A stretch of DNA of 64,000 nucleotides from Candidatus Omnitrophota bacterium (lineage in GTDB: Bacteria > Omnitrophota > Gorgyraeia > Zapsychrales > Zapsychraceae). The position numbers and the translations under genes were made by a program. The stretch covers positions 86,359 through 150,358 of the forward strand of contig JADFYJ010000005.1 in assembly GCA_015233115.1 (NCBI GenBank), written 5' to 3'. Below are positions 46,094-63,594 of the stretch, in pieces. Positions within the stretch are counted from its first letter, which is position 1. Every line of letters begins with the position of its first letter. The notes under the pieces were generated by a model. That model did not search any database, was not told the origin of the DNA, and saw nothing but the letters and a program-made list of their open reading frames with translations.

Positions 46094-46165
46094 GGGCGGT
46101 TCGTAAACCGCCCATAAACAATCGCTTTTTCATTGTCACATTGTTACATTGTCACACTGTCACGC
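46094..46165. repeat. GC hairpin gggcggttcgtaaaccgccc, core caatcgctttttc, and R arm of TGTCACA type (attgtcacattgttacattgtcacactgtcacgc) after the PilZ gene stop
   Basis: Read from sequence. Confidence 0.75.
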
Positions 46166-46166
46166 T

Positions 46167-47276
46167 TTACTTTACAACCTGCACATCAATATTAACTTTT
46201 TTGCCGCTTTCTGTTTGTGATTGATTTAAATCCCCTGACTTGTAACGCCCTTCATCAACCTTGACAGCTTGCCCACCTTTAAACAAAAATCCATTATTTC
46301 CCAAAACCGTACGAGCATGATCGCGTTCGCGTAAGGCTTTATGTTGAATTTCGTCTGCATCTTGCTGAAATTTGTGGATCTTTGATTTAACTAATCTCAT
46401 CCGGTCTTTGTAAAGGCGAATGAGTTCTTTTCCTTCAGGAATATTATTGATTTCACCTTCGTAATAACGGACTTTTCCATTTAATGTTTCAACTTCAGTC
46501 GTTAATTTTGCGTTTTTCTCATTTAACAATGCCAGATTTTGGTTAAATTCTTCTGTTAATTTAGCATTTTGCTCGGTCATTTGCCGGACTTGCTCCTGCA
46601 GTTGAGTATTTGCTGTTTTTTCTTGAGCTAATTGCTGTTGGGCCTGCGCCAACATGGTTTGAGTTTCCGCGAGAGCCGCTTTCGTTGTTGCCAGCTCTTT
46701 AGTAACCACTTCCAATTGTTGTTTAGTTTCTGTATACAATTGATGATAAGTTTGGGTTAATTTTGTCTGACCATCAATCGCTACTGTTAAATTTTGAGTC
46801 GTCTTGTTCAAACTGTTGTAAATTGAACCGCTGGTCCATACTGAATAAACCACAATCCACGCTAAAAAAATTGACGCAGCAACATTTAAAACAATCAGCC
46901 AGCCGCGCATTTTCTTTTCTTTTTCAATACCATCTTGAACTCGGCGGCGTAACGCATTCGCCAAATCTTCAGAAACATTTTCAAACTTAATGCCCCAATA
47001 ATGTTTGCTGTCATTTTTAGGTTTTGACCAGATCACGCGTCCTTGAGATGGAACAACACCAAAATCCCCTTCCTTGGCACGAAAATTAAAATTCCCGTTC
47101 ATACTTGAATCGTGTGGGGCATCAGTCTCTAACAACATGCCGGACGCACTAATGTTGCGCATACTGCCTTTTCCCTGAGCCGCCCCGCCCTCTTGCGACC
47201 AAAGAATATCTTTTTTTTCTTTTACGCGCACATCCATACGCGACTCGTTTAAAATAGTACTGACACGATTTGCCAT
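46167..47276 (-). CDS. membrane-anchored PilZ-domain c-di-GMP receptor with long extracytoplasmic coiled coil
   Basis: Strong RBS aaggagg. N-terminal PilZ motifs RxxxR (SRMDVR) and N/DxSxxG (NISASGMLLE); one TM (LIVLNVAASIFLAWIVVYSVW); then about 150 aa Q/E/K-rich heptad coiled coil plus about 70-aa C-terminal domain. Confidence 0.7.
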   Translation of the reverse strand: MANRVSTILNESRMDVRVKEKKDILWSQEGGAAQGKGSMRNISASGMLLETDAPHDSSMNGNFNFRAKEGDFGVVPSQGRVIWSKPKNDSKHYWGIKFENVSEDLANALRRRVQDGIEKEKKMRGWLIVLNVAASIFLAWIVVYSVWTSGSIYNSLNKTTQNLTVAIDGQTKLTQTYHQLYTETKQQLEVVTKELATTKAALAETQTMLAQAQQQLAQEKTANTQLQEQVRQMTEQNAKLTEEFNQNLALLNEKNAKLTTEVETLNGKVRYYEGEINNIPEGKELIRLYKDRMRLVKSKIHKFQQDADEIQHKALRERDHARTVLGNNGFLFKGGQAVKVDEGRYKSGDLNQSQTESGKKVNIDVQVVK

Positions 47277-47475
47277 AGAATAAACCTCCTTAATTGAACT
47301 TAGGACATGTTCTTAATTCCAAAAACCTCTCAGATTAAGTGCGTGTCCCCATTAACAAACAGGGTCGACAAAAACAGATTATTTTTAATTGTCAAGTAAT
47401 TTTCGTATAAAAATAAAAGTTGGTGATTAAGTATATCCTATTATTTTCAATATGGCAAGTTTTTTGGCTTTTCTC

Positions 47476-49344
47476 TTATTTTAAAATTTTATCTAACAAT
47501 CCGTTAATTAAATCTTTGCCTGGCTTTTCATTTTGCGGCTCTGAAGTTGTCCCGGCTGGTTGAGCAGGCTGGCCGGAGGACTCTTGAGGATTTATTTTTA
47601 AAGCTTTATATATCAAGCCTTTAATTTCCTCTTTCCCTCTATTATTAATGTAGTTTTTAGCCACATCTTTCAAATCTGGAAAAATTTTAAATTTAACCGC
47701 TGGACCCTGATAAGGCTTAAATGGAAAATGCATGCGTCCATCTTGTTGCAATAAATATTTGAGATCTGGAGACGATCCTAATAATTCTCCTGACAATTCC
47801 GCATCCATATACATATCCATGGCAAAATTTAAATTTTGCGTGAGATCCATATCTCCGTTAAAATTCACTTCAAAGCCCTGAGCCTTGACCAAACCTTTGC
47901 TGAAAACCAATTTATTATTGGCAAATTGTAGATCTGAAGAAACCATTTCAAATTCCGTATCTTTTGAACCAAGATAGTTTTTATATTTTTCCGCAAGGTT
48001 AGCTTCTGCTTTAGCGCCCAAATTAGGAATAAATGAAACTTGATCCAACACGAATTTTAATAAATTGAAATCCAATATTTTCATGCCATCCACCCGCGCG
48101 TCGCCGTTAGCTCCCAAATTAGCAATTCCTACCCCGCTCATGGTCATTTTTCCGTTAATCTTTCCAGCTAATTTAAACGGCATTTTAAAAATAGACGTTA
48201 ATTCACCCAAATCAACCGCTTTTACTTCCGCGATTCCGCTTAACGTTTGCGTTTTTAAATAATCTTTTACATCTGCGTCAACAGTCACATGACCTTGAGC
48301 TAAATCCAGGGATACTTCTTTAACCAAGGCATCTTTTTCGTTCACTTCTGCCCTTAATTTAATATTTGAAATAGGATCTTTCAGCCATTCAGTCGCAATA
48401 CTGCCATCATCAATAGTAGCCCGGCTAACCAATTGGGATAAACCCTGCGGGCTTAAATCCAACGAATCCACATCAACCAGGGTCATCACTTTGGGACTTG
48501 CTTTCAGCTTAGCCGCGTCGATTTGTGGACACAATTTTTTTACACCGTCCATATCCAATTGACTCGAATCAATTTTAACTTTAATATTATGTAAACTGAT
48601 TTGACTCGTTTTTAAATCAATTTTAAACCCGCCTTCCGCCGAAACCAAAGGCTGTCCCTTAGTTAAAATATCCACACTCGCTTTAAATGGTACCCACTTA
48701 TCCAAACCAAAATCATTAACCTGAACATTAATATTATTAATCGCCAGCGCCAAAGGACCGGCGGTTTGTTTTTGCGCGTACAACACACTCCCATTGTCTA
48801 CTCTTATATTAGTAACTACGATATTAGGCATCGCGGCAGGAGCATTGGAAACATTTGTAGAAGGTTTGGTATTCGGCTGTGGCTGGCCCTGAGACTGTGC
48901 CTGCGACGGTACTGGTGTAGTTGGCTTATTATTCAATTGTTGCGCCAAATAAGTAAAATTATTCGAACCGTCTGCCAGCATAATAAAATGGATAACTGGC
49001 TTACTTAAAACCAAATGCGTCACAACTAATTGACGCTGAACAATCAAAGGCCAAATTTTAACACCCACTTCAACTGAATCTAGTTCAACTAAAAATGGAT
49101 TATCAAACAGTTTATCATCGGGCAGCTTAATCCCCTTTAACGCCAGCACAAACCCGTCTTTAAGCTTAAAATTCAATTCAATCTTCGACAATTCAATATT
49201 ACGCCCAACCGCTTCCTGAGCCTTAGCCACAATCACCGGTCTAAATTGATCAAAATTATAACACTTAAAAAAAACAAACAAGCCGGCAACCAAAACAACA
49301 CCCAATATGACCAAAACCCGTAAAACCATCGATAATTTTTTCAT
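47476..49344 (-). CDS. AsmA-family protein (AsmA/TamB-like envelope biogenesis)
   Basis: N-terminal signal-anchor (MKKLSMVLRVLVILGVVLVAGLFVF), then about 600 aa of beta-rich AsmA-like sequence with the family's N-terminal region (...RNIELSKIELNFKLKDGFVLALKGIKL...). Confidence 0.6.
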   Translation of the reverse strand: MKKLSMVLRVLVILGVVLVAGLFVFFKCYNFDQFRPVIVAKAQEAVGRNIELSKIELNFKLKDGFVLALKGIKLPDDKLFDNPFLVELDSVEVGVKIWPLIVQRQLVVTHLVLSKPVIHFIMLADGSNNFTYLAQQLNNKPTTPVPSQAQSQGQPQPNTKPSTNVSNAPAAMPNIVVTNIRVDNGSVLYAQKQTAGPLALAINNINVQVNDFGLDKWVPFKASVDILTKGQPLVSAEGGFKIDLKTSQISLHNIKVKIDSSQLDMDGVKKLCPQIDAAKLKASPKVMTLVDVDSLDLSPQGLSQLVSRATIDDGSIATEWLKDPISNIKLRAEVNEKDALVKEVSLDLAQGHVTVDADVKDYLKTQTLSGIAEVKAVDLGELTSIFKMPFKLAGKINGKMTMSGVGIANLGANGDARVDGMKILDFNLLKFVLDQVSFIPNLGAKAEANLAEKYKNYLGSKDTEFEMVSSDLQFANNKLVFSKGLVKAQGFEVNFNGDMDLTQNLNFAMDMYMDAELSGELLGSSPDLKYLLQQDGRMHFPFKPYQGPAVKFKIFPDLKDVAKNYINNRGKEEIKGLIYKALKINPQESSGQPAQPAGTTSEPQNEKPGKDLINGLLDKILK

Positions 49345-49429
49345 AAAATTCCCCAATCTTTTTTTACTATATTTGCAAAGCATAAAAGATAATTATTAAC
49401 ATTTTAAGGGTAAGCGTCAAGAAAAAAAA

Positions 49430-52400
49430 TTATTTAAGATATTTCCCGACATCTTTAAAAGTCGGGTCGATTTCGCGGATGGCGGAGAAAATGCGGCGGG
49501 ATTCAGCGGTGTTGCCTTTGGAGTTTAAATCCAGGGCTCTTTGATACATGCGGTCTAATTGGGAAGACAAATCCATTTGAACCTGTTTGCGGTCTACGTC
49601 AATTTCTTGCTGACGTTTCTTCATTAAATCCAATAATTGATCCCGTTGATCTTGGGCGTCTTGCAAATTGTTTTGATTTTGAATATCTTCCCGTTTAGCT
49701 TTGGGCTCGCCAGCAGCAAGGGCTTCGTTTGACTTTTGAATCTTTACGTCTTTTAAATTTACCGATTGTTCCAATTGACGTAAAGAGTCCCGGTCTTTTT
49801 GAAGTTGAGTTTCTTCGTGATTGATTTGTTTTTCAAGACGATCAAGATCCTGATCTTCTTTGTCTATCCGGCCTTGGTTATTTTTATCCTCTTTCCGGGC
49901 TTTTGCTGTATATTCGTTAATCCTTGTTTTATTCGCTTCCTTGACAATTTTCCGAATTTGCCGAGATTGTTGATCTACTTTTCGCTGCATATTCACGGTG
50001 AATTTATGATCCAAATTACCGTCGGCTAAAAGAGCATTGAGTACCCCAACTTTTTTCTCTGCCAACCTCACATCTTTTTGATCAACATAAGACAACAAAT
50101 CATTATATGCATCTGTCACATTGGCCTGTAAGTCTTTTTGAAGATCTACTTTTTCTTCAGCATGTTTAGCTATAGGAGCTTTTCCCATATTCACAGCCTC
50201 AGATAACTTAATCTTTTGAGCCGCTAATTTTCCCCGGATAGAATGAACAAAACGTTTATCAAGAGAAGGGTTAGCCAGCATCTTTTCCGTTTCATTAATT
50301 TTTTTCGATGCTAATTCGAGCTTTTGTTCATTGACCGAATCCACAACTTCGTCAAACTCTTGGCGCACATCATTTTGTAGATTGTTTTGGACAACAGCCA
50401 TTTTGACAGCATCGGACTGATCCGCTACCGTTGGTTCCGAAGCCGCCATCTTGGTTTCAGCAAACGATGCCATACCTGATGGTTTTAGAGGAACAACTTT
50501 TTTAACCTCCGGCCTGCTGACTGGTTTAGTAATTATTTCTTGAGTTTTATATTTTTCATCTGCTTCAACAGCTTTCAATACGTCATCACAACGCCGGATC
50601 ATTTTCGAAGCAGACTTATATCCAGGATATATTTTTTCTACTGAATTAAATTTAATCCGGGCACTTCTATAGTCACCCGCATTATAGGCTGACATAGCTT
50701 CTCTATATAAAACACCCGCGTCTTTCTGCCAACGTTTTAATTCAACAAAATCGGTTTTTTCTAACAACGAGTTAACTTTACTTTTTTCTTGCCGCAATAT
50801 TCTTTGCTGATTAGCCTCAGTTTCAATCTGTTTCTTTTTATAAATTTCAAGTTCCACCGCCAGTCTTCTGCGCTCTTCACTTCGATCATGCGCTTCAGCA
50901 CGTCGGATCTCACTTTGTGTTACCTGATTACCGCTGTCCTGAGGCTGTGATTTCGAGATCTGAGATGACGGAGAATTAACCACTTCCTCTTTTCTGGCTG
51001 GGACAATTTTTTCAACTTCAGCTGTTTTTTTCGCTTCTTCTACTAAATGGACAGCTTCGCGCTCATTTTCAGCTATTGCTAATTGTTGTTCAGCACAAAA
51101 TTCTGTCAATGCATCTAATTCCACGCTCATATCTTCTTCTATCAACTCCGGTGGTTCAGCCATATCTGGGACAGCATTAGTTAAAATATCGCGCTCAAGC
51201 GCTTTGGTTAAACGATTTTCCTCTTTAGATCGCAACTTGGCAACCTGCCCGTTATTACGTTCTTTGGCGTCAATTTCCTTTCGGAACTGGGCATACTGCA
51301 TATCCCGGATATGTTCCCGGGCATTTTCTTTCGCTTTAAGTGAAGCAATCTGAGCCACAGATCCTGAAACATATCCATCTAATTGTTCACGATCCAACCG
51401 ATGCTCTTCAGTCGCCTTGGTTTTTGCTTCATTGATTTGCTGTGCTTCAGCACGAATGGCCTGATTTATTTTACTAATATATTCATCAATATTTTTATGT
51501 CTGCCCGGGACTGTTGCTTTAGCTAAATAAAATTTCCTTTTCGCTTGAACAAATTGTGACGCATTGTAAAATTCAACCGCTTGATCAAAATATTTATCAC
51601 ATAATTTATCTGAGTCCATGACTTCCGACGTTTCCAGACTGCCCCTCTTATTTTCCACGATCTGGTTTTTAACTTTTTGCTGTTCTAAAGCAACCTTAAT
51701 CAATTCTAAATATCGTTGTGACGAGCGATATCCGGGACTTTTAAATTCAACCAGATTGAATTTTTCACGAGCGATTTCATATTCTTGAGCTTTATATAAA
51801 GAAACAGCTTCAAAATACATATTCTCAATATCTTTGTCATTTAACGATTGCGCGACCTGAGGTTCAGACAAAACCGACGGAGCACTGGTTGGAACAGATA
51901 CTGGAGGCAAGACCACCGGATTTTCCCCTGGCCGTGCCTTCTCTATATACTTCTTTTGTTTCTCAAGAAGCTTATCAATTTTGAGAAGATATTTTTCTGT
52001 ATCCCGGTAATTCGGTTTCATCGTATTCACATCTTCAAAAATTTTCTTTGACCGTTCGTACTGTTTAGCCCGATATAAATCAATACCGTGCTGATAAACC
52101 TTGTTCAATGACTGCGAATCAACATTAGTAAAATCATCGTGTTCGGAAATGGAATGAGAGGATGAAGCAACCGGTGGAACAGGATAATTTTGGTTGATCA
52201 CGGGCTTAACGCCTTTTTCTTTTCCAATGGTATCGTCAATCTTCTTCAAATATTTCGCGGTCTGTTTATACTGCGGACTTAAACGCTCGACCTGATTAAA
52301 ACGGGTCCGGGCTAAAGGATAATTCTTATTATCAAACAAAGAAACCGCGGTCGTATAAATCTCATCTATCTCTTTTTGAATGGCTAAGGGAATTTTAGCT

Positions 52401-54307
52401 TTAACGCCTTGTTCAAATTTATTTTTTTCCCACGCGCCTTTATTAACCTCAGGTTGAAATTGATTCGATTCCTCATCGATCTTTTTTAGATAATCAGCGG
52501 TATCTTTATAATTTGGGTAAACCGCTTCAACCTGAATAAATTTCCTTTTTGATTCGGAAAAATTATTTTCTTTAAAAAATTTTAACGCTAATTGATATTT
52601 TGTTTCCGCTTCTTCAGTGAACTTTAACTTGCGTTCCTCGATAGCTTTCTGTACAAACATATTCTCTGCTTGCGCGCCGGTCAAAACGGGAGAAACTTCC
52701 AGCCCTTTCCCGCCTTTTAAAGCTTTTTTATTTTGGCCGACCGCTTTATTCGTCTTAACCTCAGGCAAGTTAGGCTCATATCTAGCTTTTTTCAGGCTAT
52801 ATTCTGGCTTAACCGGAACCGGCACACCTGTCGCTTTGCTGATCAAGTTAAGATAATTATTGGTGGCCTTATAATTAGAATAAAGTTCCTTAACCTGCAA
52901 AAATTTTTCTTGCGCCAGAGCATATTTTTTCTGATCATAAAAACGCAGAGCCTCAATATAAAGCTTTTTGATTTCTTCCCCATTAGTCCGCAGCGATTCT
53001 TTATCTTCCCAATCTTGAATTTTTTTAAGGAACGAACGTGTCGCTTTATATTCCGGAGCAATCGCTTCTACAGAATCAAATTGAATTTTGGCCTTGGTAT
53101 ATTGCTGCAAATTAAACAAGGCAACAGCCCCTTCATAAATAAATTGGGCTTCATCATAAATACGTTTTTGAGTTTTCTCGTCAGTTAAAGCTTCTTGCTT
53201 CTCCTTAGTCGCTTCTTCCTGCTTATCATCAAGCCGCTCTTCACGGACTTGCTTTGAAAAGAAGGTAACCTTCTCATCATTCGTCAGAATTTTTCCATCC
53301 TGCGGTCCTTGCGCGTTTAATTTGGCCAGATACCGCTGAGTAAATTTATAATCCGGCACGATCCATTCCACTTCTTTAAACCGTTCTAAGGCCTGAGTAT
53401 ATTGTCCGATTTTATATAAACGGATCGCTTCCGTATAAAACTTTTCAGCTTGAACCACGGATTTATGCTGACGGTCTTTTTCTTCTGAGTCTATTTTTTT
53501 ACGCCACTCTTCTTTTTTCTTGCGGGCGGCATCCGTCTGATCTTTTAATTTTTTCTCGATGATCTGGGCTTGATCTTTTTGGATCTCCTGATCAATAACC
53601 ATGAGATAACTGCGGGCGGCTTTGTAATCCGGAAACATTTCTTCGACGGATTCAAATTGTTCTTTCGCGGGGAGATATTTGGCTTGTTGAAAAAGCTTTA
53701 CAGCAGCTTCATAAACTTTATCCACTTCCTTAGCACTAAAACCGCGTTCTTGTTCAAGTTGCTTTATACGGGTATTTTCTTCTTCAGCCAAAACTTTTTC
53801 TTGTTTTTTAAAACGGCTCGAACTGATCCCGATATATCCCTTCATTTCCGGATGTTCGGTAATCTTAATCGCTTTATCCCAATATTCGCGTGCCTGATCA
53901 TATTTGCCGTCCTCATAAAACTGCATAGCTTTTTGATAATACTCGCGGGCTTTTTCTTCGCGTTGTTGATTCCGCCGGAACTTAGCCTGTTCTTCCAGCT
54001 TCACATTAACTTTTTCAATCTTCGCTTTAGAACGTTTAATCAAATCTTTAATATTTACAACAAAACCATCTTCGGTTTTTTCTTCGCGCAAAGTTTTTTC
54101 TTTATTGATAAGAGCTGGTGCTAACGCGGGCAGAGTTGTTTTTTCAATAGACGAATCTTGCGGCTGGACTACTCCGGCAGGGGTCAGATCGGCAACAGCC
54201 GACGTCGAGGTTTTCGCGGCAGGCCCAGCGGCGAAAACTATCCTCGCCGAGAGCGTAAACGCAAACCCCAATGAAACGATCAATAAAGTGCGGTTGAGAC
54301 CTCTCAT
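49430..54307 (-). CDS. giant (1625 aa) secreted repeat protein: signal peptide plus at least 14 copies of an about 70-100-aa TPR-like unit with charged coiled-coil linkers
   Basis: SP MRGLNRTLLIVSLGFAFTLSARIVFA. Recurring unit such as YYQKAMQFYEDGKYDQAREYWDKAIKI / VYEAAVKLFQQAKYLPAKEQFESVEEMFPDYKAARSYLMVI / IYDEAQFIYEGAVALFNLQQYTKAKIQFDSVEAIAPEYKATRSFLKKI. Confidence 0.8.
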   Translation of the reverse strand: MRGLNRTLLIVSLGFAFTLSARIVFAAGPAAKTSTSAVADLTPAGVVQPQDSSIEKTTLPALAPALINKEKTLREEKTEDGFVVNIKDLIKRSKAKIEKVNVKLEEQAKFRRNQQREEKAREYYQKAMQFYEDGKYDQAREYWDKAIKITEHPEMKGYIGISSSRFKKQEKVLAEEENTRIKQLEQERGFSAKEVDKVYEAAVKLFQQAKYLPAKEQFESVEEMFPDYKAARSYLMVIDQEIQKDQAQIIEKKLKDQTDAARKKKEEWRKKIDSEEKDRQHKSVVQAEKFYTEAIRLYKIGQYTQALERFKEVEWIVPDYKFTQRYLAKLNAQGPQDGKILTNDEKVTFFSKQVREERLDDKQEEATKEKQEALTDEKTQKRIYDEAQFIYEGAVALFNLQQYTKAKIQFDSVEAIAPEYKATRSFLKKIQDWEDKESLRTNGEEIKKLYIEALRFYDQKKYALAQEKFLQVKELYSNYKATNNYLNLISKATGVPVPVKPEYSLKKARYEPNLPEVKTNKAVGQNKKALKGGKGLEVSPVLTGAQAENMFVQKAIEERKLKFTEEAETKYQLALKFFKENNFSESKRKFIQVEAVYPNYKDTADYLKKIDEESNQFQPEVNKGAWEKNKFEQGVKAKIPLAIQKEIDEIYTTAVSLFDNKNYPLARTRFNQVERLSPQYKQTAKYLKKIDDTIGKEKGVKPVINQNYPVPPVASSSHSISEHDDFTNVDSQSLNKVYQHGIDLYRAKQYERSKKIFEDVNTMKPNYRDTEKYLLKIDKLLEKQKKYIEKARPGENPVVLPPVSVPTSAPSVLSEPQVAQSLNDKDIENMYFEAVSLYKAQEYEIAREKFNLVEFKSPGYRSSQRYLELIKVALEQQKVKNQIVENKRGSLETSEVMDSDKLCDKYFDQAVEFYNASQFVQAKRKFYLAKATVPGRHKNIDEYISKINQAIRAEAQQINEAKTKATEEHRLDREQLDGYVSGSVAQIASLKAKENAREHIRDMQYAQFRKEIDAKERNNGQVAKLRSKEENRLTKALERDILTNAVPDMAEPPELIEEDMSVELDALTEFCAEQQLAIAENEREAVHLVEEAKKTAEVEKIVPARKEEVVNSPSSQISKSQPQDSGNQVTQSEIRRAEAHDRSEERRRLAVELEIYKKKQIETEANQQRILRQEKSKVNSLLEKTDFVELKRWQKDAGVLYREAMSAYNAGDYRSARIKFNSVEKIYPGYKSASKMIRRCDDVLKAVEADEKYKTQEIITKPVSRPEVKKVVPLKPSGMASFAETKMAASEPTVADQSDAVKMAVVQNNLQNDVRQEFDEVVDSVNEQKLELASKKINETEKMLANPSLDKRFVHSIRGKLAAQKIKLSEAVNMGKAPIAKHAEEKVDLQKDLQANVTDAYNDLLSYVDQKDVRLAEKKVGVLNALLADGNLDHKFTVNMQRKVDQQSRQIRKIVKEANKTRINEYTAKARKEDKNNQGRIDKEDQDLDRLEKQINHEETQLQKDRDSLRQLEQSVNLKDVKIQKSNEALAAGEPKAKREDIQNQNNLQDAQDQRDQLLDLMKKRQQEIDVDRKQVQMDLSSQLDRMYQRALDLNSKGNTAESRRIFSAIREIDPTFKDVGKYLK

Positions 54308-54365
54308 TTATTATTTAGTGTCTTCTTTTTATTATTATAAAAGATGGGATCCCCCAATTTTGTTT

Positions 54366-57300
54366 TTATTCTATCACACCCTTCTTAGCATCTTCCAGAA
54401 GTTTCTCTAATATTTTCTTAGCTTTTTCATATTGCCCAGTGCGGTAATAATCGTCTGCCTTTTGTTTCATATCCACCAATTGTTTTTCCTGCGCAACACG
54501 GGTCCGAATATAGGAAGCGGCCTCTTCATACATCATCTGCCCGGTTAATACAATGTCGCGATAGATATCGAAAGACTCTTCCCAACTGCCGCGATTGGCA
54601 GATTTTTGCGCTAATTTATAATAGGTGTTGAGCTCCTGCATAATAGGACTTTGCGGATTAGACAATTCCTGTTCAACCATGGCCCAGGCCCAATGACTAA
54701 TCTTTTCCTCAACCCAACGGTCATTGGAGCGGGCAATTTCATCCGGAGTCCGGTCATAAAATTTACCTGTCAGACGGACAAACGGGCCGCGAGACGCAAA
54801 GCTTAATGACGTAAGATCATCATTATAATCCGTAAAATTAAAGCCAACGCCTAATTGCGCGAAATCGTTCAACCGGCGTGCCGCCTCGATCAAGAAGCCG
54901 GATTTCATATCCCGTGATTCATGTTGAGCTAAAATCCTGAATTCTCCGCCGATCATCCAGTCGCGGTCAATCTTATAATTAATACGGTGAATCATCAACC
55001 ACGTATGGGTGTTAGTAAAATCAAATCCGGCCACTTTTTCCTTGGCCATCCGGTACGCGAATTTTTCTCCCACTTGCCAATGTTCGTCAATATCATACAA
55101 ACCTTCGGCGGAGAAAATATCCGCGATGCTCTGTTGAATATCCGAATTCGTAGCGTCCGCCTGACTGGCCGGAGACTGTTCTTCTTTGTGGGTCACTTCA
55201 CCAATCAAATTTAATTTATCCATCATCAAAGGACGATAGGCCGCGCCTAAGGTCACTTGATGCAGCATGGCGATCGTTCCCGTACCAATTGACGGGATAC
55301 CCGTTGAGGTTAAAGTTGTTTCCTGATCCATATTTTGGGAATTCGTATATTGCCCTTTCGCGTAAAGGGTCAATTCCGGCGACACTTTACCCTGCGCGGA
55401 GGCGTAAACCAAATATTGATTCATATCCGAACTTCCCGTATCCTTGCGGTATTCCGCTTTAACCGACGAGGTCAGCACTTTTTCTCCGGTCTGTTCATCC
55501 GCCTTCGCGTATCCAACACCGAGGGTATACGCGTCACGATCCGTGATTGTTCCGTTGTAATTCTGCACTTTGCCGCGTTCATAACTGCCCGACAGCGCCC
55601 AGCGATCACCAATATCCCCGGTTAAACCAAAAATATTAGACTGAGTAATGGAATCCGGCGCGTCCGCTAATTGACGGGTTAACGTTCCCTTTAAACGCAC
55701 ATTGTCTTTCTCCCGAACCAAACCGTATTCATCACCCGTCGACTTTTGACTGCCGGCTTGACCAAAAGACCGCGTCGTCAACATAGATACTTCACTGTTT
55801 AATTTCTTTTCTGTTCCAAACGTCAACTTAGTATCTTTGCCGTCACGCGTCGTATCGGCCACCGATATCCCGCTGGTCGTCGTCGTATTAGGATCCACTT
55901 GAGACCGCCCGCCAAAGGTCATCACCATATCCTGATCCAATGAATTCGTCGCGTAGGATAATTTCGACTCAACCGCACTGTCTCGATCGATTTGAGACTT
56001 GCCTCCAAAACTCACTAATTTTTTGGGTTCTTTATCCTGCAAATCTGTTAACCCCACATCTGTTTCGATTTTGTTTTTCTCATTCGGACTATATTCCGCG
56101 CCGACCGTGGCCTGATTCTGGCCCAAAGCCGTATTATACGTTTGCGAAGTGGCACCGGTAGACGTAGATATAGACGGATTAGCCGCGATATCATAATTAG
56201 CTTTTAAGACCAGCTTGCCTGCTGTGACCGACTTGTTGACATCATATTTGGCCGCCATTTGCGCGGAAGCGCCCATCTGGCCATTAGTATATTTTAGATC
56301 AACGGTGGTTTTATCAGTGGGTTTAATCGTGGCGCCGACAGTGTTTTGATCATTAGGCGTTCCGGATAAGGTCTGTTGTCGTCTGGCCATCACACTCAAC
56401 TTATCATTGACTTGATAATCAGCCTGAAACGCCAGCAGGGTCCCTTGGCCCGGAGAAGCAAAGGTGGTATCTCCTGGGCTTAAAGCATTGGCCGCTTGGT
56501 TAGAAAACTCAGCCGTCAAACGGAGTTTGCTGTTGACATCATGCACAATTTGCGCCAAGGTCGTCGTAGTCTTTTGCCCTCCGACCTGCAGTTTGGTTTG
56601 CGTGCTCCCTCCGTCTAGTAAAGTCTGAATATCATGCCGTAACCTTAAACGGGTATGATCCGTGATATCATACGTCGCGGCTAAAGAAACCAACTCTTTG
56701 CCTTGCTGGGCCGTCGAATCTGTGGTCGAGAAATTATTATCAATCCACCGATATGCGGCCGTCAGACCTAGACGGTTAAACAACGTCGCGTCGCCGGAAA
56801 TCCCATACGCTTTATTTTTAGATCCAGCTGGAGCGCTGACGCTCGTAAAGGATAAACCACCGTCCGTAGATAAATATGTATCCTGGGCATTGGATGTCGT
56901 TTCCGCGACCTCCGCTTTAACTTTGGCGTTATCGCCGACATGCAAGGTCGCGTCTGTGCCGGTCAATTGATAATTGCCGCCCTGTTGTTCTTCCTTGACA
57001 TATGTTTCCCCAATGATCAAATGATTTCCAATCGCTTTAGCCAGACGGGTTCCTTCGCTGGCCTCATTCATCGTGCCAGAGACGCTGTACGCGTAATCCG
57101 CGACTACATACACCAGGTTTCCGTCAAGAATATTATTCGACACAATCGATGTTGAGGTCACAATCTGCGGCACCGGCCGCCAGAATATAACCCGGCCGCT
57201 CGGATAATCAATATCATAGTCTGACCCTTCCTTTAAATCCTGAGTACTGACGACAACACCCGTCACGCGATCGCGGACTTCCGCGCGAATCTTGTCTGAA

Positions 57301-60300
57301 CCTTCCACGACTTCTTTATTTTTTAGATAATACAATGATGTGCCAGTGGCCAAAAATTCGTTATGCGCGGTCTTTTGATGTGCCTGTGCGTAAAACACCA
57401 CCGCCTTGGTATCAGGCTCGCCGAATTTGGTCGTTCCTAAAGATTCCAGATCCACCTTGCCGCCGTAATAACTCCGGGCAAAACGGGCAAAATCGGTATC
57501 TTTAAAATCAATTGAGTAATTGCTCCATTGGGCGCTGGATTTATCCCATTCCACCAATAAATATAACGGCCCTTGCGTATCCGTCGCTGAATAATTGATG
57601 GATGAATTGTCCCCATAAACCGGGTAGAATTTATCCGGATCCAATTTCTTGAATAAAGCGCTGTTTTGACGGTCGGTATCTAAACTTGATGTGATCAAAT
57701 ATTTCCCAAGAATTTTTCCCTTCAAATAGTACGCAGCCCGTCCCTGACTATACAAGCCGGTATTATATTGATCCGCCGGGCTGACCGCTTCCATATTGCC
57801 TTTGTTAAAATTATATCCGACTTTTTCATCTCCCATACCGACGAGAAACATATAATTTTCACCGACTCGCACATTTTTGACATACGTTTTCCCTCCGATA
57901 ACATTATCGCCCGGGGCAGCGGCCAAAGGAATTCCAGTCGGAGAAACCAGTGTCCCAGCCGGCAAAGCCGGTGCTCCGAGTGTTGGTATAACATTTACGG
58001 GTGATGCCCCTTCAGCCGGTACAGCGGGTATCCCTTCTTGCACCAGAAAATCATAATTTCCGTTAGGCATAATCAATCTGATCGTATTGATGTCGTCCGC
58101 GACTTTACCATTAAGAACATCCTGCGCTGTAACTTTTGTTCGCGTCGTTAAAGGCACATCCATTTCCAACCTGCCATCTTTTTTGATCTGGATCGACTTT
58201 AAGTTACCAGCCAATTTACTGATGACCACCATCTCTCCATTCAAACTAATGGACTGCTTGGCGAGATTATTTGTCTCCGACGCTTGCCGTACCCAATCCG
58301 CGTAATTCGTAGGATTCAGTTTTGTGTCAGCCTGAGTTTCTTTATCTAAGCTCAACTTGGTAATATCACGGGCATCCTCTTGTGCTTGCTTTTGCCGGGC
58401 AAATTCATCCACATCACGAAACACAATCGGACGAATCTTGGTTTCATCCGTACGGTTATGTTCGTCTTTCGCGATAAAATAATATTCATAATCTTTTTTC
58501 ACATCGATATACCGGCCCATTTGATCTTTCCCGTCCCAAAATATCGGATCATCTATCGTATACCGGTCGCCCTCGAATTTCTTGACCAAACTCTTGGTGT
58601 ATTTATCCTGGATAATTAATTTCCATTGACTGATAAAAAGCGGATAATTCGTGAATATCCTAAACTCTACTTTATTAAGGAATATTCCATCACGAATATC
58701 GATTTGATTGCCAAACATATCCGCGTTCAATAACGGCACTGGAACAGTCTGGTCTTTCTGAACTGTAACATTTTTCATAAAGAATTGCGCGTCGTCACTC
58801 TTGAACCGGCCATAATCCATGTTCACACCAAAATTCACTTTATTGATCATGCCGTTGGTCACATCAATAATGACCGCTTTATCTGTCGTCAAATACGCGC
58901 CTTCCGGTAAGGTCCGTTCATCCAAGCGAACCACGTGGCGTCCAGGAGTTAAGCCCGGAATACTAAACTGTCCATTTTTATCCGTCGTGATAACTGTACC
59001 GTCTTCCATGGCCAACGTCACATTTGGCACAGGCTCTTCACGGATCACGTCTTGACCCATAGCGGAATATTCCGGAGCATCTTGAATACCATTTTCATTC
59101 TGATCCCAGAACACTTTTCCGATAACAGTTCCCATATCGAACAACGGATCCATCGCCACTTTAATATTAACCCTGGAGGTATTGGATAATTTAGTACCAT
59201 TACGATAAACCGCTTGCGCTTTATTTTCATATGTTCCCGGAACCACTCCTGAACCAACCACTAATTGATATTTTAAAGTCCTGGCCATGCCGGGAGTCAT
59301 TTTATGATCAGCGTTACCGATATAAAACATCAAAGGCCGGTTCCCAATCGGGTCAGCCGTCGGAAGGCCGTCTAAAGTCACCCGACCCGGCAAGAATTTA
59401 AATCCAGGAGGTATGATATCTTTTAAATACGGGTCAATAATATCATTGCTGCTAATACTTTCCATCTTCACGGTGTAGGTCGCAACTTCGCCCACGTGAA
59501 TTTGATTTTTATTAACGGATTTCTCGATCTTAATCAAAGTACCCGCTGAATCCACCGGCATATCCAACTGCATCACATTAGCGCCGACAGTAAAATGTTC
59601 ACCCAATGACCCGGTTGCCACAGTACGTCCGGCAGGGAATGTCTTTTCAACGGATGGGAAGTCATACCCGTTCACTTCAACCTTAATGTAATAATCACCA
59701 GGGGCAGCCAGGAAACTATAATATCCGTCGGCTAAAGTCGTGACCGGATTGGTATCCGTCACAGATAATTCTATATTGTCAGTCTTAGCCGGTAGATTCG
59801 TCGCGGCATTATAAATAGTGACCACAGCGCCTTTGATCAAATGATCAGATACAGAATCAAAAACATACCCGAATGGATCAACTAAAGAAACTGTGATGAT
59901 CCGGCTCGCTACCCCATCGCTCACCGCAACCAATTTTATAGCCCCTCTGGTCAAATCTGTGGTCAATATACCAGAATATGCTGTTCCACCAGCATTCTTA
60001 ACCAAGCTTCCCACTTTTTGCAACAGCAAGTTATGGGCAGCCGCGTCATCTTGCGCCAAAATATCAACCAAAACTGACGGAGTATCCGCGTTACCTGACA
60101 CCACCGGCCTAGGACTATTGACGCGGTCTGCCATAGCTGGAGAAACAATGACCGGCACTTGCTCAACAGTCGGGTTAGCGACGACTACAATTGGACGGTC
60201 AATGTATTTGATAAAAGCACCAGGATTAATTGGATCCGGCGCGTATAGCCTGAGCGCGTTTGCTCCAACAGCTAACTGCATATTGGAATACAAAGCCTTG

Positions 60301-63300
60301 TTCGGATCTTTTATATTAAGAGCGTCATTCGGGGCATTCTGGATGACAAAATTACCATTTGCATCCGTCGTAGCTCTGCCGATCTCATTGTCTGATCCGT
60401 CCTTGACTATCACCAATGTACCAGCAATTGCTGACCCGATGACTGTTACATACTGTCCAACCGTCTTTCCTGTGAAAGGATAATTGATATTCAAATTCAC
60501 AAAATTCCATTTAGGATTCGGGTTGACCACGTCATTATTTCCCAAATTCGTACACATGTTACAAATCAAATCATTTCCTGGCGCGCCCAGTACATCCGAA
60601 TCCTGCACTTTCAAATTCTGGGTAGACAAACCTGCCGCCAATAAATTCAAATTCCAAGTTCCTGGAGATGCGGTTGAAAGCAGACTTGTATACCCGGTTG
60701 TATCCCCATTGATGCCCTCAGTTCCGCGGACATTAAATGACCCGCCCACCGCAATAGTCTGAGTTGACCCGGCCGCAAATTTGATCGTCTTGGTGAGTTC
60801 ATTAGAATAAAGTGAATAAAACGTTGTGCTTCCGGTGATGGTCGCCGTACTTGCGGTATTAAAATTAATTTCACCAGTTCCAGGTGTAAATAAGCCCGGA
60901 TTGGTTCTGGTAAAACTTCCGGCGATTTTAAAGGTATTATGATTGTTCGCGTCAATAGTGGCCGGCGCTTTTAATTCACCGCCGGTGATGCTGACATCAT
61001 GCAGAACAGCTATTTTTCCGTTTACCGCGTTTAATATGCCATTAGTCGCAGCCGCACCATTCAACAGCAAATCATGGCCCACCGTCAAAAGGTTAGACGC
61101 ATTTGAAGTATCTAGAGAACCATTGGTAATCGTTAAATCATGATTAACCACCAAATCCGCAGTCGTGCGGTAATTATCCGGTACAGCGTTTATGTCATTG
61201 AGGATTAAATTATAATATGGAATATTAAGGATAGTACGCTGATTCAATACCCCATTATTGTCTCCAGTATAAATAAAGGTTCCACGGAATCCGGCATCAA
61301 CCTGAATAGTCGGAGTTTCTGTTCCCAGCATTTTGATCGTCCCATCATCAACACCCGCGGCATTATTGAATATTTTCCCAGTCATGATAATGTTGATGCC
61401 ATTTAAAGTCACGACAGCGCCGTTCGCGACTTTTAAATCTACGATCGAAACCGGTGTAGCCAAAGTAGGCTGATTCGGCACATTCGGAATCTTCGCGCCA
61501 TCTATTGGTCGAGGAATAAAGCCCAGATCCCAGTTCAAAGGATCATCCCAGCTCGTACCATTAGAACCATTCCAGACATCTTCGGCAGGACCAAACAACC
61601 AATTCGTATTATTGCCGTTAATTTGCGTTGAATTCGACGGCACCAAAAGAACACCAGCGTCAGCACGGCCTTTAACATTAGAGTCTCTCACGTCCAGAAA
61701 ATCCAAATCCTGGATGCCGTGGAATTTAAGTTCAAAATACGCCTGCGTGGTTGGCGCTGAACTGTTAATAGAAAGCAGATTTCCTGCGGCACCTTTTAAC
61801 GTCAATTGATGCGCAATCAATGGCGAATTGGCTTTGGCCACCGTGGTATCAAACGTTAAAGTTGCTGGGACTGCTGTTGTTTTTGTCAAATCATAGAAAT
61901 TCGTATTAACCGCGGAAATAGTTTGATTAACACCATTTAAGAGCACTAAACCGCCATTCGCGTTAAAGTTGTCGCTCGTCACATTCCCGCCATTGGAAGT
62001 AAAATTCCCCTGCACAGAAAATGTTTTTCCTAACCCCGGAGCGGTAAAGGTACCCGCGGTCATCACAAATGATCCATTATTCCCTGCAGAATCTTTGTTC
62101 ACCACAATATTACCGTTACCAGCCGTGAAGACTCCGCCACCCATATTCAAATTCCCGCCCACGCCGGTCGCGTTAGCTACTGTTAAAGTTTTAGCGTTCG
62201 TGGAAATATCAAACGTGCCTTTGGTCAAGGTCAAAGAACCGAAAATATTTAGATTCTTGTCAATGATGAATGTATCGGTCGCATCAGCGTTATTAATAAT
62301 CACATTGTAATAATCCATCTTCACATCGCCAAAATTCGGCTGCGGCAGAGTACGCGTGGTATTTGTATTTACACCATCACCAGTAAACGTAAACGTACCA
62401 GCGTCTTTATTGGACGTCGTAATGTGTAATTGATCAATAAAACCCCATAAAAGAACATTACCGCTATTCGACAGATTAATGATCGTCGCTTTAAAACTGT
62501 TAAAATTAATGGTCGCGCCAGCTTGAACGCTCATTGTTCCTACATTAATATCCCCCGTCAAAACCGGTTGGACACCCCCAGAGCCAGTTACGTTAGGTAT
62601 GATGACATTGTCCCCAACAAAAGGCACAATACCTAAATCCCAGTTGGCAGCCACATTCCAATCTGAAGATGTGGTTCCCTTCCAGGTCAAAGTTCCCGTA
62701 TTAAATACCCAATGCGGACTGGGCTGAAGAGTGTCATTGCCGCCCACATCAATGGAATTACGCGCCACCATATCCAAATTCGCTGCGTTGCCATTTTTAA
62801 CTTTTAGATATTGCAGAGCCTGAGAACTGCCATTATTCATATTTACTGTAAACTGCACCGGAGTTCCATCATCATCATTACTGTTTAAAGACAATTCTGT
62901 TCCTACCCCTGTTCCTTTTAACGTCAATGTCCCCGCCACATACTGAATGCCAGTACTGTCAAATATCAACGTATCAGTCCCAATTTTATTTAAATTGTAA
63001 AACGCGTTGGTTGTCCCCAGCACAGACTGATTATTTCCAACTAACGTCACAGTAACGTTGGTTCCAATAAATGTCGCTGCTGCTGCCCCGGTCCAGTTTC
63101 CGGTTACATTCATATTCTGGCCATTCATGTCAAAAGTGCCTGCTGTATTAAAAAATGAGCCACCGATCACAGCCAAACCATTATTTAATTTCGCGGTTCC
63201 GGTACCGGTATGACTTAAATTATAAAACGAAGTATTAGGAAGATTAAGAGTTTGAATACCTGCTGGAGCATATAATTTAAACGTACCCGCTGTCGGAGTG

Positions 63301-63536
63301 TATGTCCCGTTGTTGGTCCAATCCCCGGTTAAGCCGACGGTGCCTGTCGTCGTAGAAATCGTCCCGGCATTGACAATACTCCCGGCCACATTCAACGTAT
63401 CATTATTAATTTTAACAGTAGACCCGGCAGGAATATTTAGGCCCTGAGCAAAACATAAAAAAGAAAGTCCGCTGATAAGAAATAATATCAGCAGAGCATT
63501 GCGAAAAAATGAAGTAAAAACTTTTTTCCCGAGCAT
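54366..63536 (-). CDS. giant (3056 aa) outer-membrane protein: signal peptide, about 1000-aa T/N/G-rich beta-helix-like repeat region, Ig-like / CarboxypepD_reg-like / DUF11-like domains, about 800-aa C-terminal beta-barrel, then about 130-aa TPR-like tail
   Basis: SP MLGKKVFTSFFRNALLILFLISGLSFLCFAQG. Repeats like NVTGNWTGAAAATFIGTNVTVTLVGNNQSV. Domain-like segments (VTIYNAATNLPAKTDNIELSVTDTNPVTTLADGYYSFLAAPGDYYIKVEVNGYDF; IEKSVNKNQIHVGEVATYTVKMESISSND). Long run of amphipathic beta-strands ending ...LGVGFNFTDY...FVRLTGKF. Tail YYRTGQYEKAKKILEKLLEDAKK. Confidence 0.8.
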   Translation of the reverse strand: MLGKKVFTSFFRNALLILFLISGLSFLCFAQGLNIPAGSTVKINNDTLNVAGSIVNAGTISTTTGTVGLTGDWTNNGTYTPTAGTFKLYAPAGIQTLNLPNTSFYNLSHTGTGTAKLNNGLAVIGGSFFNTAGTFDMNGQNMNVTGNWTGAAAATFIGTNVTVTLVGNNQSVLGTTNAFYNLNKIGTDTLIFDSTGIQYVAGTLTLKGTGVGTELSLNSNDDDGTPVQFTVNMNNGSSQALQYLKVKNGNAANLDMVARNSIDVGGNDTLQPSPHWVFNTGTLTWKGTTSSDWNVAANWDLGIVPFVGDNVIIPNVTGSGGVQPVLTGDINVGTMSVQAGATINFNSFKATIINLSNSGNVLLWGFIDQLHITTSNKDAGTFTFTGDGVNTNTTRTLPQPNFGDVKMDYYNVIINNADATDTFIIDKNLNIFGSLTLTKGTFDISTNAKTLTVANATGVGGNLNMGGGVFTAGNGNIVVNKDSAGNNGSFVMTAGTFTAPGLGKTFSVQGNFTSNGGNVTSDNFNANGGLVLLNGVNQTISAVNTNFYDLTKTTAVPATLTFDTTVAKANSPLIAHQLTLKGAAGNLLSINSSAPTTQAYFELKFHGIQDLDFLDVRDSNVKGRADAGVLLVPSNSTQINGNNTNWLFGPAEDVWNGSNGTSWDDPLNWDLGFIPRPIDGAKIPNVPNQPTLATPVSIVDLKVANGAVVTLNGINIIMTGKIFNNAAGVDDGTIKMLGTETPTIQVDAGFRGTFIYTGDNNGVLNQRTILNIPYYNLILNDINAVPDNYRTTADLVVNHDLTITNGSLDTSNASNLLTVGHDLLLNGAAATNGILNAVNGKIAVLHDVSITGGELKAPATIDANNHNTFKIAGSFTRTNPGLFTPGTGEINFNTASTATITGSTTFYSLYSNELTKTIKFAAGSTQTIAVGGSFNVRGTEGINGDTTGYTSLLSTASPGTWNLNLLAAGLSTQNLKVQDSDVLGAPGNDLICNMCTNLGNNDVVNPNPKWNFVNLNINYPFTGKTVGQYVTVIGSAIAGTLVIVKDGSDNEIGRATTDANGNFVIQNAPNDALNIKDPNKALYSNMQLAVGANALRLYAPDPINPGAFIKYIDRPIVVVANPTVEQVPVIVSPAMADRVNSPRPVVSGNADTPSVLVDILAQDDAAAHNLLLQKVGSLVKNAGGTAYSGILTTDLTRGAIKLVAVSDGVASRIITVSLVDPFGYVFDSVSDHLIKGAVVTIYNAATNLPAKTDNIELSVTDTNPVTTLADGYYSFLAAPGDYYIKVEVNGYDFPSVEKTFPAGRTVATGSLGEHFTVGANVMQLDMPVDSAGTLIKIEKSVNKNQIHVGEVATYTVKMESISSNDIIDPYLKDIIPPGFKFLPGRVTLDGLPTADPIGNRPLMFYIGNADHKMTPGMARTLKYQLVVGSGVVPGTYENKAQAVYRNGTKLSNTSRVNIKVAMDPLFDMGTVIGKVFWDQNENGIQDAPEYSAMGQDVIREEPVPNVTLAMEDGTVITTDKNGQFSIPGLTPGRHVVRLDERTLPEGAYLTTDKAVIIDVTNGMINKVNFGVNMDYGRFKSDDAQFFMKNVTVQKDQTVPVPLLNADMFGNQIDIRDGIFLNKVEFRIFTNYPLFISQWKLIIQDKYTKSLVKKFEGDRYTIDDPIFWDGKDQMGRYIDVKKDYEYYFIAKDEHNRTDETKIRPIVFRDVDEFARQKQAQEDARDITKLSLDKETQADTKLNPTNYADWVRQASETNNLAKQSISLNGEMVVISKLAGNLKSIQIKKDGRLEMDVPLTTRTKVTAQDVLNGKVADDINTIRLIMPNGNYDFLVQEGIPAVPAEGASPVNVIPTLGAPALPAGTLVSPTGIPLAAAPGDNVIGGKTYVKNVRVGENYMFLVGMGDEKVGYNFNKGNMEAVSPADQYNTGLYSQGRAAYYLKGKILGKYLITSSLDTDRQNSALFKKLDPDKFYPVYGDNSSINYSATDTQGPLYLLVEWDKSSAQWSNYSIDFKDTDFARFARSYYGGKVDLESLGTTKFGEPDTKAVVFYAQAHQKTAHNEFLATGTSLYYLKNKEVVEGSDKIRAEVRDRVTGVVVSTQDLKEGSDYDIDYPSGRVIFWRPVPQIVTSTSIVSNNILDGNLVYVVADYAYSVSGTMNEASEGTRLAKAIGNHLIIGETYVKEEQQGGNYQLTGTDATLHVGDNAKVKAEVAETTSNAQDTYLSTDGGLSFTSVSAPAGSKNKAYGISGDATLFNRLGLTAAYRWIDNNFSTTDSTAQQGKELVSLAATYDITDHTRLRLRHDIQTLLDGGSTQTKLQVGGQKTTTTLAQIVHDVNSKLRLTAEFSNQAANALSPGDTTFASPGQGTLLAFQADYQVNDKLSVMARRQQTLSGTPNDQNTVGATIKPTDKTTVDLKYTNGQMGASAQMAAKYDVNKSVTAGKLVLKANYDIAANPSISTSTGATSQTYNTALGQNQATVGAEYSPNEKNKIETDVGLTDLQDKEPKKLVSFGGKSQIDRDSAVESKLSYATNSLDQDMVMTFGGRSQVDPNTTTTSGISVADTTRDGKDTKLTFGTEKKLNSEVSMLTTRSFGQAGSQKSTGDEYGLVREKDNVRLKGTLTRQLADAPDSITQSNIFGLTGDIGDRWALSGSYERGKVQNYNGTITDRDAYTLGVGYAKADEQTGEKVLTSSVKAEYRKDTGSSDMNQYLVYASAQGKVSPELTLYAKGQYTNSQNMDQETTLTSTGIPSIGTGTIAMLHQVTLGAAYRPLMMDKLNLIGEVTHKEEQSPASQADATNSDIQQSIADIFSAEGLYDIDEHWQVGEKFAYRMAKEKVAGFDFTNTHTWLMIHRINYKIDRDWMIGGEFRILAQHESRDMKSGFLIEAARRLNDFAQLGVGFNFTDYNDDLTSLSFASRGPFVRLTGKFYDRTPDEIARSNDRWVEEKISHWAWAMVEQELSNPQSPIMQELNTYYKLAQKSANRGSWEESFDIYRDIVLTGQMMYEEAASYIRTRVAQEKQLVDMKQKADDYYRTGQYEKAKKILEKLLEDAKKGVIE

Positions 63537-63541
63537 TAAGA

Positions 63542-63594
63542 AAATGTGACAATGTTAAAATAGTAATTGTCATCCCCGAGAGCTTGAATCGGGG
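63542..63594. repeat. TGTGACAAT inverted pair (atgtgacaatg...attgtcat) plus GC hairpin ccccga-gagcttgaa-tcgggg immediately upstream of the giant OMP gene start
   Basis: Read from sequence. Confidence 0.6.

Follow-up and report, generated by a model that had tools for sequence, protein, structure and literature searches.

Do four consecutive genes for envelope proteins in an uncultured Candidatus Omnitrophota bacterium, represented by a metagenome-assembled genome, encode a single system that carries a cyclic di-GMP (c-di-GMP) signal out of the cytoplasm? The question arises from a 64,000-nucleotide stretch of this genome, hereafter the window (GenBank assembly GCA_015233115.1, contig JADFYJ010000005.1, positions 86,359 to 150,358), for which an earlier examination of the letters alone, here called the sequence-only reading, had proposed such a system. 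The four genes are co-directional on the minus strand and encode, in order, a giant outer-membrane (OM) protein of 3056 aa (54366-63536), a 1625-aa protein with tetratricopeptide repeat (TPR)-like modules (49430-54307), a 635-aa AsmA-family protein (47476-49383), and a bitopic PilZ protein of 369 aa (46167-47276). All were delimited as open reading frames (ORFs) and assigned with Pfam, together with our own hidden Markov model (HMM) for the TPR-module protein and an AlphaFold2 (AF2) model for the PilZ protein. The giant-TPR, TPR-AsmA, and AsmA-PilZ gaps are 58, 46, and 199 bp, and all four products are envelope proteins. The sequence-only reading had placed, measured, and typed these genes correctly.

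Our favoured reading, to which we assign a probability of about one in three, is that the four genes are a lineage-specific envelope set of one Omnitrophota clade that works as a c-di-GMP inside-out system. The evidence for one c-di-GMP-gated machine is suggestive. Its parts belong to known superfamilies, and their combination is undescribed; the literature search on Omnitrophota with PilZ, AsmA, or adhesin returned only a 'giant genes' preprint, which deals with different multi-transmembrane proteins of >30,000 aa followed by small pilZ genes.

The PilZ protein would be the entry point of the signal. Its cytoplasmic PilZ domain (aa 13-113; 46938-47240, minus strand) was recognized by Pfam, alignment, and fold match. 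PF07238 matches residues 13-113 with 43.6 bits (cut-off 22.5; E = 4e-11), and R13, R17, N41, S43, and G46, which make up the motifs R13xxxR17 (RxxxR) and N41xS43xxG46 (NxSxxG), are invariant in 39/39 family members. AF2 modeled the domain as a six-stranded beta-barrel like those of solved PilZ domains, with a predicted local distance difference test (pLDDT) score of ~90 over residues 18-98 (75 for the whole protein), and Foldseek matched the fold to BcsA (4hg6, 5e-6), MapZ, PP4397, YcgR, and Alg44 (4rt1, 5e-4), c-di-GMP-bound PilZ domains being among the matches. The domain is predicted to be a c-di-GMP receptor with intact binding motifs. A hydropathy scan placed a single transmembrane helix at aa 125-143 (46848-46904, minus strand), and the same scan gave one helix at this position in 35 of the 39 members and two in none (0/39). 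Seven lysine or arginine residues precede the helix of the window protein and one follows it, a bias to the PilZ side that runs across the family; we predict a single-pass inner-membrane protein with its N-terminus in the cytoplasm.

Beyond the membrane, AF2 and the alignment define a periplasmic coiled-coil region (aa 144-325), then a LGNNGF..K.G..VKVD motif and a short tail (46170-46847, minus strand). The AF2 model shows one unbroken helix from residue 103 to 272, running through the membrane, and a second helix at 279-325, which gives ~180 periplasmic helical residues. The C-terminus is poorly modeled, yet G326, N327, and G329 are invariant in the 39 members, and a median of 187 aa (range, 146-264) separates the transmembrane helix from the C-terminal motif. 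One transmembrane segment, rather than none or two, and a long extracytoplasmic coiled coil had been expected from the sequence, and both were found. A profile search of 1.84 billion representatives (50% identity) returned 161 PilZ-transmembrane matches at E<=1e-30, most of them full-length (330-450 aa) with the same layout, and all named members were Omnitrophota, among them a protein 100% identical to that of the window and named 'Candidatus Omnitrophica bacterium'. In the PDB, matches to the family profile were limited to coiled coils and one weak Xanthomonas PilZ. Catalogues of c-di-GMP effectors would gain a defined class from this uniform, unannotated family. Two of its members, P0164 (585 aa) and P0266 (701 aa), have C-terminal regions much longer than usual, which might be alternative periplasmic output domains.

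The 1625-aa protein contains 12 isolated 47-residue TPR-like modules (8-19 in orthologues), as counted with our own HMM, which was built from units picked by eye. The module, with consensus AEKVYQEAVKLYKAKKYEQAKEKFEQVEEISPNYKATKKYLKKIDKEL, consists of a single TPR-like hairpin and a third helix. Pfam TPR_2 matches at 3e-11, and one unit alone passes TPR_2. The modules make up ~35% of the chain and are joined by charged or proline-rich linkers of 12-349 aa, the C-terminal half is long and charged, and no contiguous TPR solenoid or superhelix, of the kind seen in AlgK or the N-terminal domains of BcsC and PgaA, was found in this protein. A signal peptide is present in it and in every orthologue examined. 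Secretion and TPR-like units had thus been called correctly by the sequence-only reading, and its picture of one repeating unit throughout the chain was not borne out. As judged from its sequence, the protein is Sec-exported, flexible, and module-carrying.

The giant protein begins with a Sec signal peptide (aa 1-31), followed by a beta-helix-like part (~32-1010), Ig-like domains (~1030-1570), a conserved region, a barrel, and a helical tail. The beta-helix-like part is rich in Gly, Thr, and Asn over ~1000 residues, and the Ig-like domains at residues 1030-1570 match Pfam CarboxypepD_reg, SpaA, DUF11, and Big_6. BLAST self-comparison detected no internal repeats in the N-terminal 1900 aa; motifs of the form W..G....W....NW..G..P recur in the N-terminal part as seen by eye only. 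The C-terminal barrel region (aa ~1885-2926; 54759-57884, minus strand) was recognized from AF2, the loop pattern, and Foldseek. The AF2 model of residues 1882-3056, computed from a 42-sequence alignment, is of moderate confidence (mean pLDDT 67; predicted TM-score [pTM] 0.44) and contains 44 consecutive predicted strands of mean length 12, a count that is approximate. In the model, short connections (mean 4.0) alternate with longer ones (mean 7.8), and this alternation is an OM-barrel signature. The last predicted strand is GPFVRLTGKF. The best Foldseek matches in the PDB are all OM barrels (SlpA, 8.5e-10; LptD; TonB-dependent transporters; ushers; MtrB), with low TM-scores of 0.17-0.21 because no solved barrel is this large. 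A PDB sequence search gave no match for the barrel region or for the N-terminal 980 aa.

The giant protein thus combines a signal peptide, many strands with alternating connections, an aromatic-ended terminal strand, and Foldseek likeness to OM barrels, and it is predicted to be anchored in the OM by a very large C-terminal beta-barrel of ~44 strands. The barrel that had been proposed from the sequence appeared in the structure prediction; for the surface exposure proposed with it, we infer that the N-terminal part lies outside the cell. The 130-residue C-terminal tail (aa 2927-3056; 54369-54758, minus strand) forms four helices in AF2 and ends in a TPR-like hairpin; it is presumably periplasmic, since it is located after the last strand. 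The stretch at aa 1885-2140 (window ~57117-57884, minus strand) is the most conserved of the barrel family, with a cluster of nearly invariant columns, and despite this conservation its AF2 pLDDT is only 26-40. Instead of contributing strands to the barrel, it may form a plug or a domain that binds a partner.

The barrel family has at least 957 homologues at E<=1e-3, found in Scalindua, Thermodesulfovibrionia, Chlamydiae, Sedimentisphaerales, and gammaproteobacteria, with at least five phyla among the name-bearing homologues. The giants that share the synteny described below are a distinct ~3000-aa subfamily, and unlinked family members have 1500-2000 aa. The extra N-terminal part of the syntenic giants amounts to 1000-1200 aa, and the N-terminal 1200 aa of the window protein are collinear with an orthologue (locus L024) at 34% identity. 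In another Omnitrophota metagenome-assembled genome, a 2005-aa paralogue lies directly downstream of a diversity-generating retroelement (locus L023, 6633-16018) that comprises an FGE-sulfatase-fold protein, bAvd, and a reverse transcriptase. The barrel family is notable independently of any functional link and may be the most notable part of the locus. No solved barrel is as large as the predicted one, which, if the model holds, bears on how large a BAM-assembled barrel can be.

The 635-aa protein matches Pfam AsmA with 54.7 bits (cut-off 29.8; 1e-14) and DUF748 with 53 bits (cut-off 50; 2e-14). A hydropathy scan placed a transmembrane segment at residues 20-38, which is an N-terminal membrane anchor, and the orthologues also match YhdP. 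Its membership in the AsmA family is therefore supported as first proposed. The TamB half of the former 'AsmA/TamB-like' label was not, since the protein scores far short of what NCBIfam requires of AsmA and TamB equivalogs (32 bits against 825 for TamB). A PDB sequence search with this protein gave no match.

Under the favoured reading, binding of c-di-GMP would change the packing of the PilZ domains, and the continuous helix would transmit this change to the coiled coil in the periplasm. There the contact that the coiled coil, or its conserved tip, makes with the TPR-module protein would be altered, and so, through the shared type of module, would contact with the giant's periplasmic tail, either by way of the TPR-module protein or directly. 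The outcome would be to tether, organize, or release the surface protein or the OM that surrounds it. The AsmA-family protein would be an accessory that supplies lipid or helps to insert a very large barrel, and it would be dispensable in several lineages. If the functional link is true, LapD and Alg44 would be joined by a third architecture that relays a c-di-GMP signal through the inner membrane. The most specific version, an undescribed inside-out device in which a periplasm-spanning PilZ coiled coil contacts TPR-like modules and so controls a surface protein on the largest single-chain barrel yet (~44 predicted strands against 36 in SprA), is unlikely as a whole. The surface biology of Omnitrophota, a phylum of ultra-small and possibly host-dependent bacteria, is almost unknown.

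Whether the four genes belong together was assessed in ~33 distinct PilZ-carrying loci (numbered with the prefix L), which were annotated with our own family HMMs; counts are given over assessable loci. The order along the shared backbone is giant, TPR, an optional DsbH/YyaL-like gene, AsmA, PilZ, YgjP, an optional PF1765-like gene, YqeY, a carbohydrate esterase family 4 (CE4) deacetylase, a phosphorylase of ~1090 aa resembling glycoside hydrolase family 149 (GH149), and MoxR/Bat. The giant-TPR-AsmA-PilZ order recurs in at least seven other species-level Omnitrophota genomes at 23-51% protein identity. Identity to the window proteins is 23-30% for AsmA, 31-37% for PilZ, 34-42% for TPR, and 44-51% for the giant C-terminus, with 56-61% for YqeY, 57-61% for the phosphorylase, and 69-73% for MoxR. 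The giant-TPR gap is 21-92 bp in relatives.

Several observations favour a real link. The order is kept over this divergence with short giant-TPR and TPR-AsmA gaps, and the products are all envelope proteins whose genes are followed by a terminator-like structure after PilZ. The module type is common to the TPR-module protein and to barrel-family C-termini: the module HMM matches the extreme C-terminus of barrel-family proteins in single copy, clearly so in the Scalindua homologues (E ~1e-6, third helix included). In loci that lack AsmA, the stop codon of the TPR gene directly adjoins or overlaps the PilZ start (L029 and L030, and likewise L024). Locus L016 keeps TPR-AsmA-PilZ despite having lost the downstream block, its synteny being broken directly after PilZ. 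The syntenic giants form a subfamily of their own. The PilZ protein has invariant motifs, a single transmembrane helix, an N-in topology, and, in the model, a helix that is continuous from 103 to 272. Precedents exist as well, in Alg44, which has a TPR protein and a barrel as partners, and in AsmA-like proteins of surface-protein pathways.

It is about equally likely that there is no dedicated system at all, and that four independent envelope genes are neighbours only through the very stable chromosomal backbone of the clade. The giant would then be a stand-alone adhesin or surface-layer-like OM protein, the AsmA-family protein a general phospholipid bridge, and the PilZ protein an effector with some other target. 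Much of the synteny fits this explanation and weighs against the favoured reading. Collinearity extends over at least 15 genes in well-diverged genomes and takes in unrelated housekeeping genes (YgjP, YqeY, CE4, the GH149-like phosphorylase, and MoxR/Bat are all included), so adjacency is weak evidence. The most constant neighbours of PilZ are the downstream genes YgjP, YqeY, and CE4 (29/30) and not AsmA. The YgjP/YqeY block follows PilZ in 29/30 loci, the exception being L016, where UvrA follows. Directly upstream of PilZ we found AsmA in 16/28 loci, the TPR gene in four (L018, L024, L029, and L030), a Trx-like gene in one (L036), and something else in seven; in four of these seven (L015, L021, L022, and L033), AsmA lies 3-10 kb further upstream, beyond inserted glycan-synthesis or multi-transmembrane genes, and at least five related loci have no AsmA gene in the block. 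The giant gene precedes the TPR gene in 8/11 loci, and in L017, L020, and L030 an AmmeMemoRadiSam-type gene takes its place upstream of TPR. The conservation of gene order expected by the sequence-only reading therefore holds in at least seven species, and it is qualified by collinearity that runs on into housekeeping genes and by the inconstancy of AsmA and the giant.

Other points bear in the same direction. Insertions and losses fall inside the block (the DsbH/YyaL-like gene, glycan genes between AsmA and PilZ, loss of AsmA, loss of the giant), and members of the barrel family stand alone in other phyla; partner genes were not found downstream of the barrel homologues in Scalindua (L007) and in a second Omnitrophota locus (L023). 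The C-terminal module match is weak in Omnitrophota barrel proteins, with E = 0.1 in the window giant. In the six loci measured, 100-240 bp separate AsmA from PilZ, and a promoter-like site lies in this gap, so the PilZ gene may be transcribed on its own. The region at large is a general envelope and housekeeping neighbourhood (LpxB, MsbA-like, WaaA, LpxK, and rpsB-tsf-pyrH-frr). Set against the absence of a system are the improbability that four consecutive envelope proteins, three of them lineage-specific, would be neighbours by chance, the module type common to the giant tail and the TPR-module protein, the tight TPR-PilZ coupling where AsmA is lost, the conduct of L016, and the separate ~3000-aa subfamily of syntenic giants.

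A less likely explanation, to which we give only a small chance, is a mechanical one. The PilZ coiled coil and the TPR-module protein would together span the periplasm as a spacer between inner membrane and OM that is tuned by c-di-GMP, with the giant barrel as one of several OM anchors, in functional likeness to Lpp, to the OmpM or SlpA connectors, or to TolA. The dimensions suit such a tether: the helical region in the periplasm measures 187 residues at the median, and the AF2 model has a 129-residue helix (~19 nm) and then a return helix. As in TonB and TolA, the linkers of the TPR-module protein are rich in proline and charged. Several loci lack the giant gene or AsmA and still retain TPR and PilZ, and SlpA, the best structural match of the barrel, connects the OM to the wall (PMC9388160). 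However, Pfam and NCBIfam detected no peptidoglycan-binding domain (SLH, OmpA-like, or LysM) in the four proteins, a strict ruler is disfavoured by the length of the coiled coil, which ranges from 146 to 264 residues, and the C-terminal motif is without known binding function.

Alg44 offers the closest precedent for the topology and for the types of partner. It has an N-terminal cytoplasmic PilZ domain, a single transmembrane helix, and a periplasmic domain, and its working partners are a TPR protein (AlgK) and an OM barrel (AlgE) (PMC8461298). An N-in PilZ domain with RxxxR and one transmembrane helix is present in both, and to call the PilZ topology one without any known parallel would be too strong. 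Alg44 differs in its periplasmic part, which is a membrane-fusion (HlyD-like) domain there and a long coiled coil with a small motif here; AF2 and Pfam found no membrane-fusion beta domains, HlyD, or biotin-lipoyl match in the PilZ protein. The TPR protein here is an array of isolated modules, unlike AlgK, an Alg8-like synthase of glycosyltransferase family 2 (GT2) was not found, and the barrel has ~44 predicted strands and a huge N-terminal extension. No sequence relationship to Alg44 outside the PilZ domain was detectable when the family profile was compared with the PDB. As a candidate Alg44-type co-polymerase, the window protein has the PilZ domain and the transmembrane helix, and neither the membrane-fusion domain nor a GT2 partner was found among the scanned window ORFs.

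It is very unlikely that the genes serve a synthase-dependent exopolysaccharide exporter of the alginate, cellulose, or poly-N-acetylglucosamine type, built from an Alg44-like PilZ co-polymerase, a TPR scaffold, an OM porin, and the CE4 deacetylase, for although the shared PilZ topology, a membrane-anchored CE4 deacetylase conserved three genes downstream, a glycosyltransferase family 4 (GT4) fragment upstream of the giant gene, and glycan-synthesis genes including GT2 between AsmA and PilZ in some relatives would suit it, no multi-transmembrane GT2 synthase was found in the block or among the scanned window ORFs, the periplasmic part of the PilZ protein is purely helical, the barrel has ~44 rather than 16-18 strands and carries a ~1900-aa N-terminal extension, the TPR modules do not form a superhelix, the CE4 gene is split from the block by YgjP and YqeY, and the upstream GT4 gene is not conserved in L024.

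Other known systems resemble single components. LapD is a two-transmembrane HAMP-GGDEF-EAL receptor with a periplasmic LapG-binding domain, and LapA is an RTX adhesin that is secreted by a type I secretion system and retained in the TolC-like LapE. The Lap system likewise controls a giant adhesin by relaying a cytoplasmic c-di-GMP signal through the inner membrane (PMC3032545 and PMC3032553), and the likeness to the four-gene set is in concept only. HAMP-GGDEF-EAL, a LapG-type protease, a type I secretion system, and RTX were not found in the four proteins or the scanned window ORFs. TamB assists autotransporter assembly, and AsmA-like proteins such as TamB and GspN can serve dedicated surface-protein pathways. 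As with TamB/TamA and GspN, an inner-membrane AsmA-family protein is encoded here beside the gene of a large OM or surface protein; the AsmA-family protein differs from TamB in having 635 aa, the size of E. coli AsmA. A translocation and assembly module was rejected as a candidate on the TamB score given above, on the lack of an Omp85/TamA gene in the block, and on the loci without AsmA.

SlpA of Deinococcus (30 strands) and SprA of the type IX secretion system are, like the giant, very large single-chain OM barrels with extra non-barrel domains. SprA, with 36 strands, has been named the largest known barrel (preprint 10.64898/2026.03.07.710327); the giant differs in its ~44 predicted strands, in lacking PDB sequence similarity, and in its low TM-scores to solved structures. 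An SLH/OmpM/SlpA-type connector was rejected as a class for the four proteins, in which SLH, OmpA, and LysM were not found by Pfam or NCBIfam. With type Va autotransporters the giant shares a signal peptide, a beta-helix-like and Ig-like passenger, and a C-terminal barrel in one chain. The barrel of a type Va autotransporter has 12 strands and ~280 aa. Assignment to this class was rejected, as Pfam PF03797 did not match and the barrel region spans ~1040 aa with ~44 predicted strands and is followed by the 130-aa helical tail.

The giant gene is preceded by the 3' end of the GT4 glycosyltransferase gene and then a ~170-bp A/T-rich spacer. At the other end, the region 3' of the PilZ gene (46047-46156, minus strand) contains three tandem copies of TGTGACAA, two hairpins, and a T-run. 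One hairpin is GC-rich (GGGCGGT...ACCGCCC), and the other is A/T-rich with a 16-bp stem and then the T-run; the region looks like a terminator, and likely marks the end of the transcription unit. Apart from these hairpins, the promoter and terminator scan of the window was largely uninformative, with 70 promoter-like sites against 44 expected. An Rfam scan found three tRNAs only and no c-di-GMP riboswitch in the AsmA-PilZ gap.

The 8-bp unit TGTGACAA occurs as 3-4 tandem copies at the 3' ends of the LpxB and PilZ genes (31096-31129, plus strand, and 46131-46156, minus strand), and a lone copy lies 9 nt upstream of the start codon of the giant gene (63545-63554, plus strand). The window holds 13 matches at <=1 mismatch, against 4.1 +/- 2.0 expected. 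The unit could represent either a short intergenic repeat or a site at which a protein binds on the flanks of the four-gene block.

Two kinds of gene are inserted into the block in relatives. A DsbH/YyaL-like gene (~750 aa, with thioredoxin and six-hairpin domains) lies between TPR and AsmA in most relatives, and the window lacks it. It was found in L002 (5794-8001), L004 (5822-8104), L005 (5746-7923), and L006 (5754-8015), and also in L017, L022, L027, L036, and L038. The more distant lineages carry inserts of 3-10 kb beside PilZ, mostly between AsmA and PilZ, that hold genes for sugar-nucleotide and glycan synthesis (L021, 127-9781; L022, 4792-9275; L031, 1-3195 and 4888-6414; L015, 6982-9844). 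These inserts encode an oxidoreductase, acetyltransferases, an aminotransferase, methyltransferases, a GT2 enzyme, and large ~600-aa multi-transmembrane ArnT/PMT-like proteins.

The rest of the window is ordinary chromosome, with a Bat/MoxR operon, rpsB-tsf-pyrH-frr, tRNAs, and amino-acid biosynthesis genes. Its genes related to lipopolysaccharide (LpxB, an MsbA-like ABC transporter, WaaA, LpxK, and an LpxL-like gene) indicate by their presence that the host is a diderm that makes lipopolysaccharide. The GH149-like phosphorylase of the backbone (40137-43526, minus strand) is a cytoplasmic protein of ~1095 aa, with M35 as the probable true start. It has no Pfam match and a sub-threshold NCBIfam match to GH149 beta-1,3-glucan phosphorylase (1e-38; 133 bits against a cut-off of 1150). 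Its 57-61% identity, on par with that of YqeY, ranks it with the most conserved proteins in the syntenic region, and it may represent a new glycoside phosphorylase family. At 1470-3461 (minus strand), a Lip_A_acyltrans domain is fused to an ELM1-like glycosyltransferase-fold domain in a gene that adjoins LpxK and WaaA. The gene at 6113-7210 (minus strand), a neighbour of topA and dprA, encodes a tyrosine recombinase of the phage integrase family with an N-terminal SAM-like domain; this recombinase is probably XerC/D-like and not the integrase of a mobile element.

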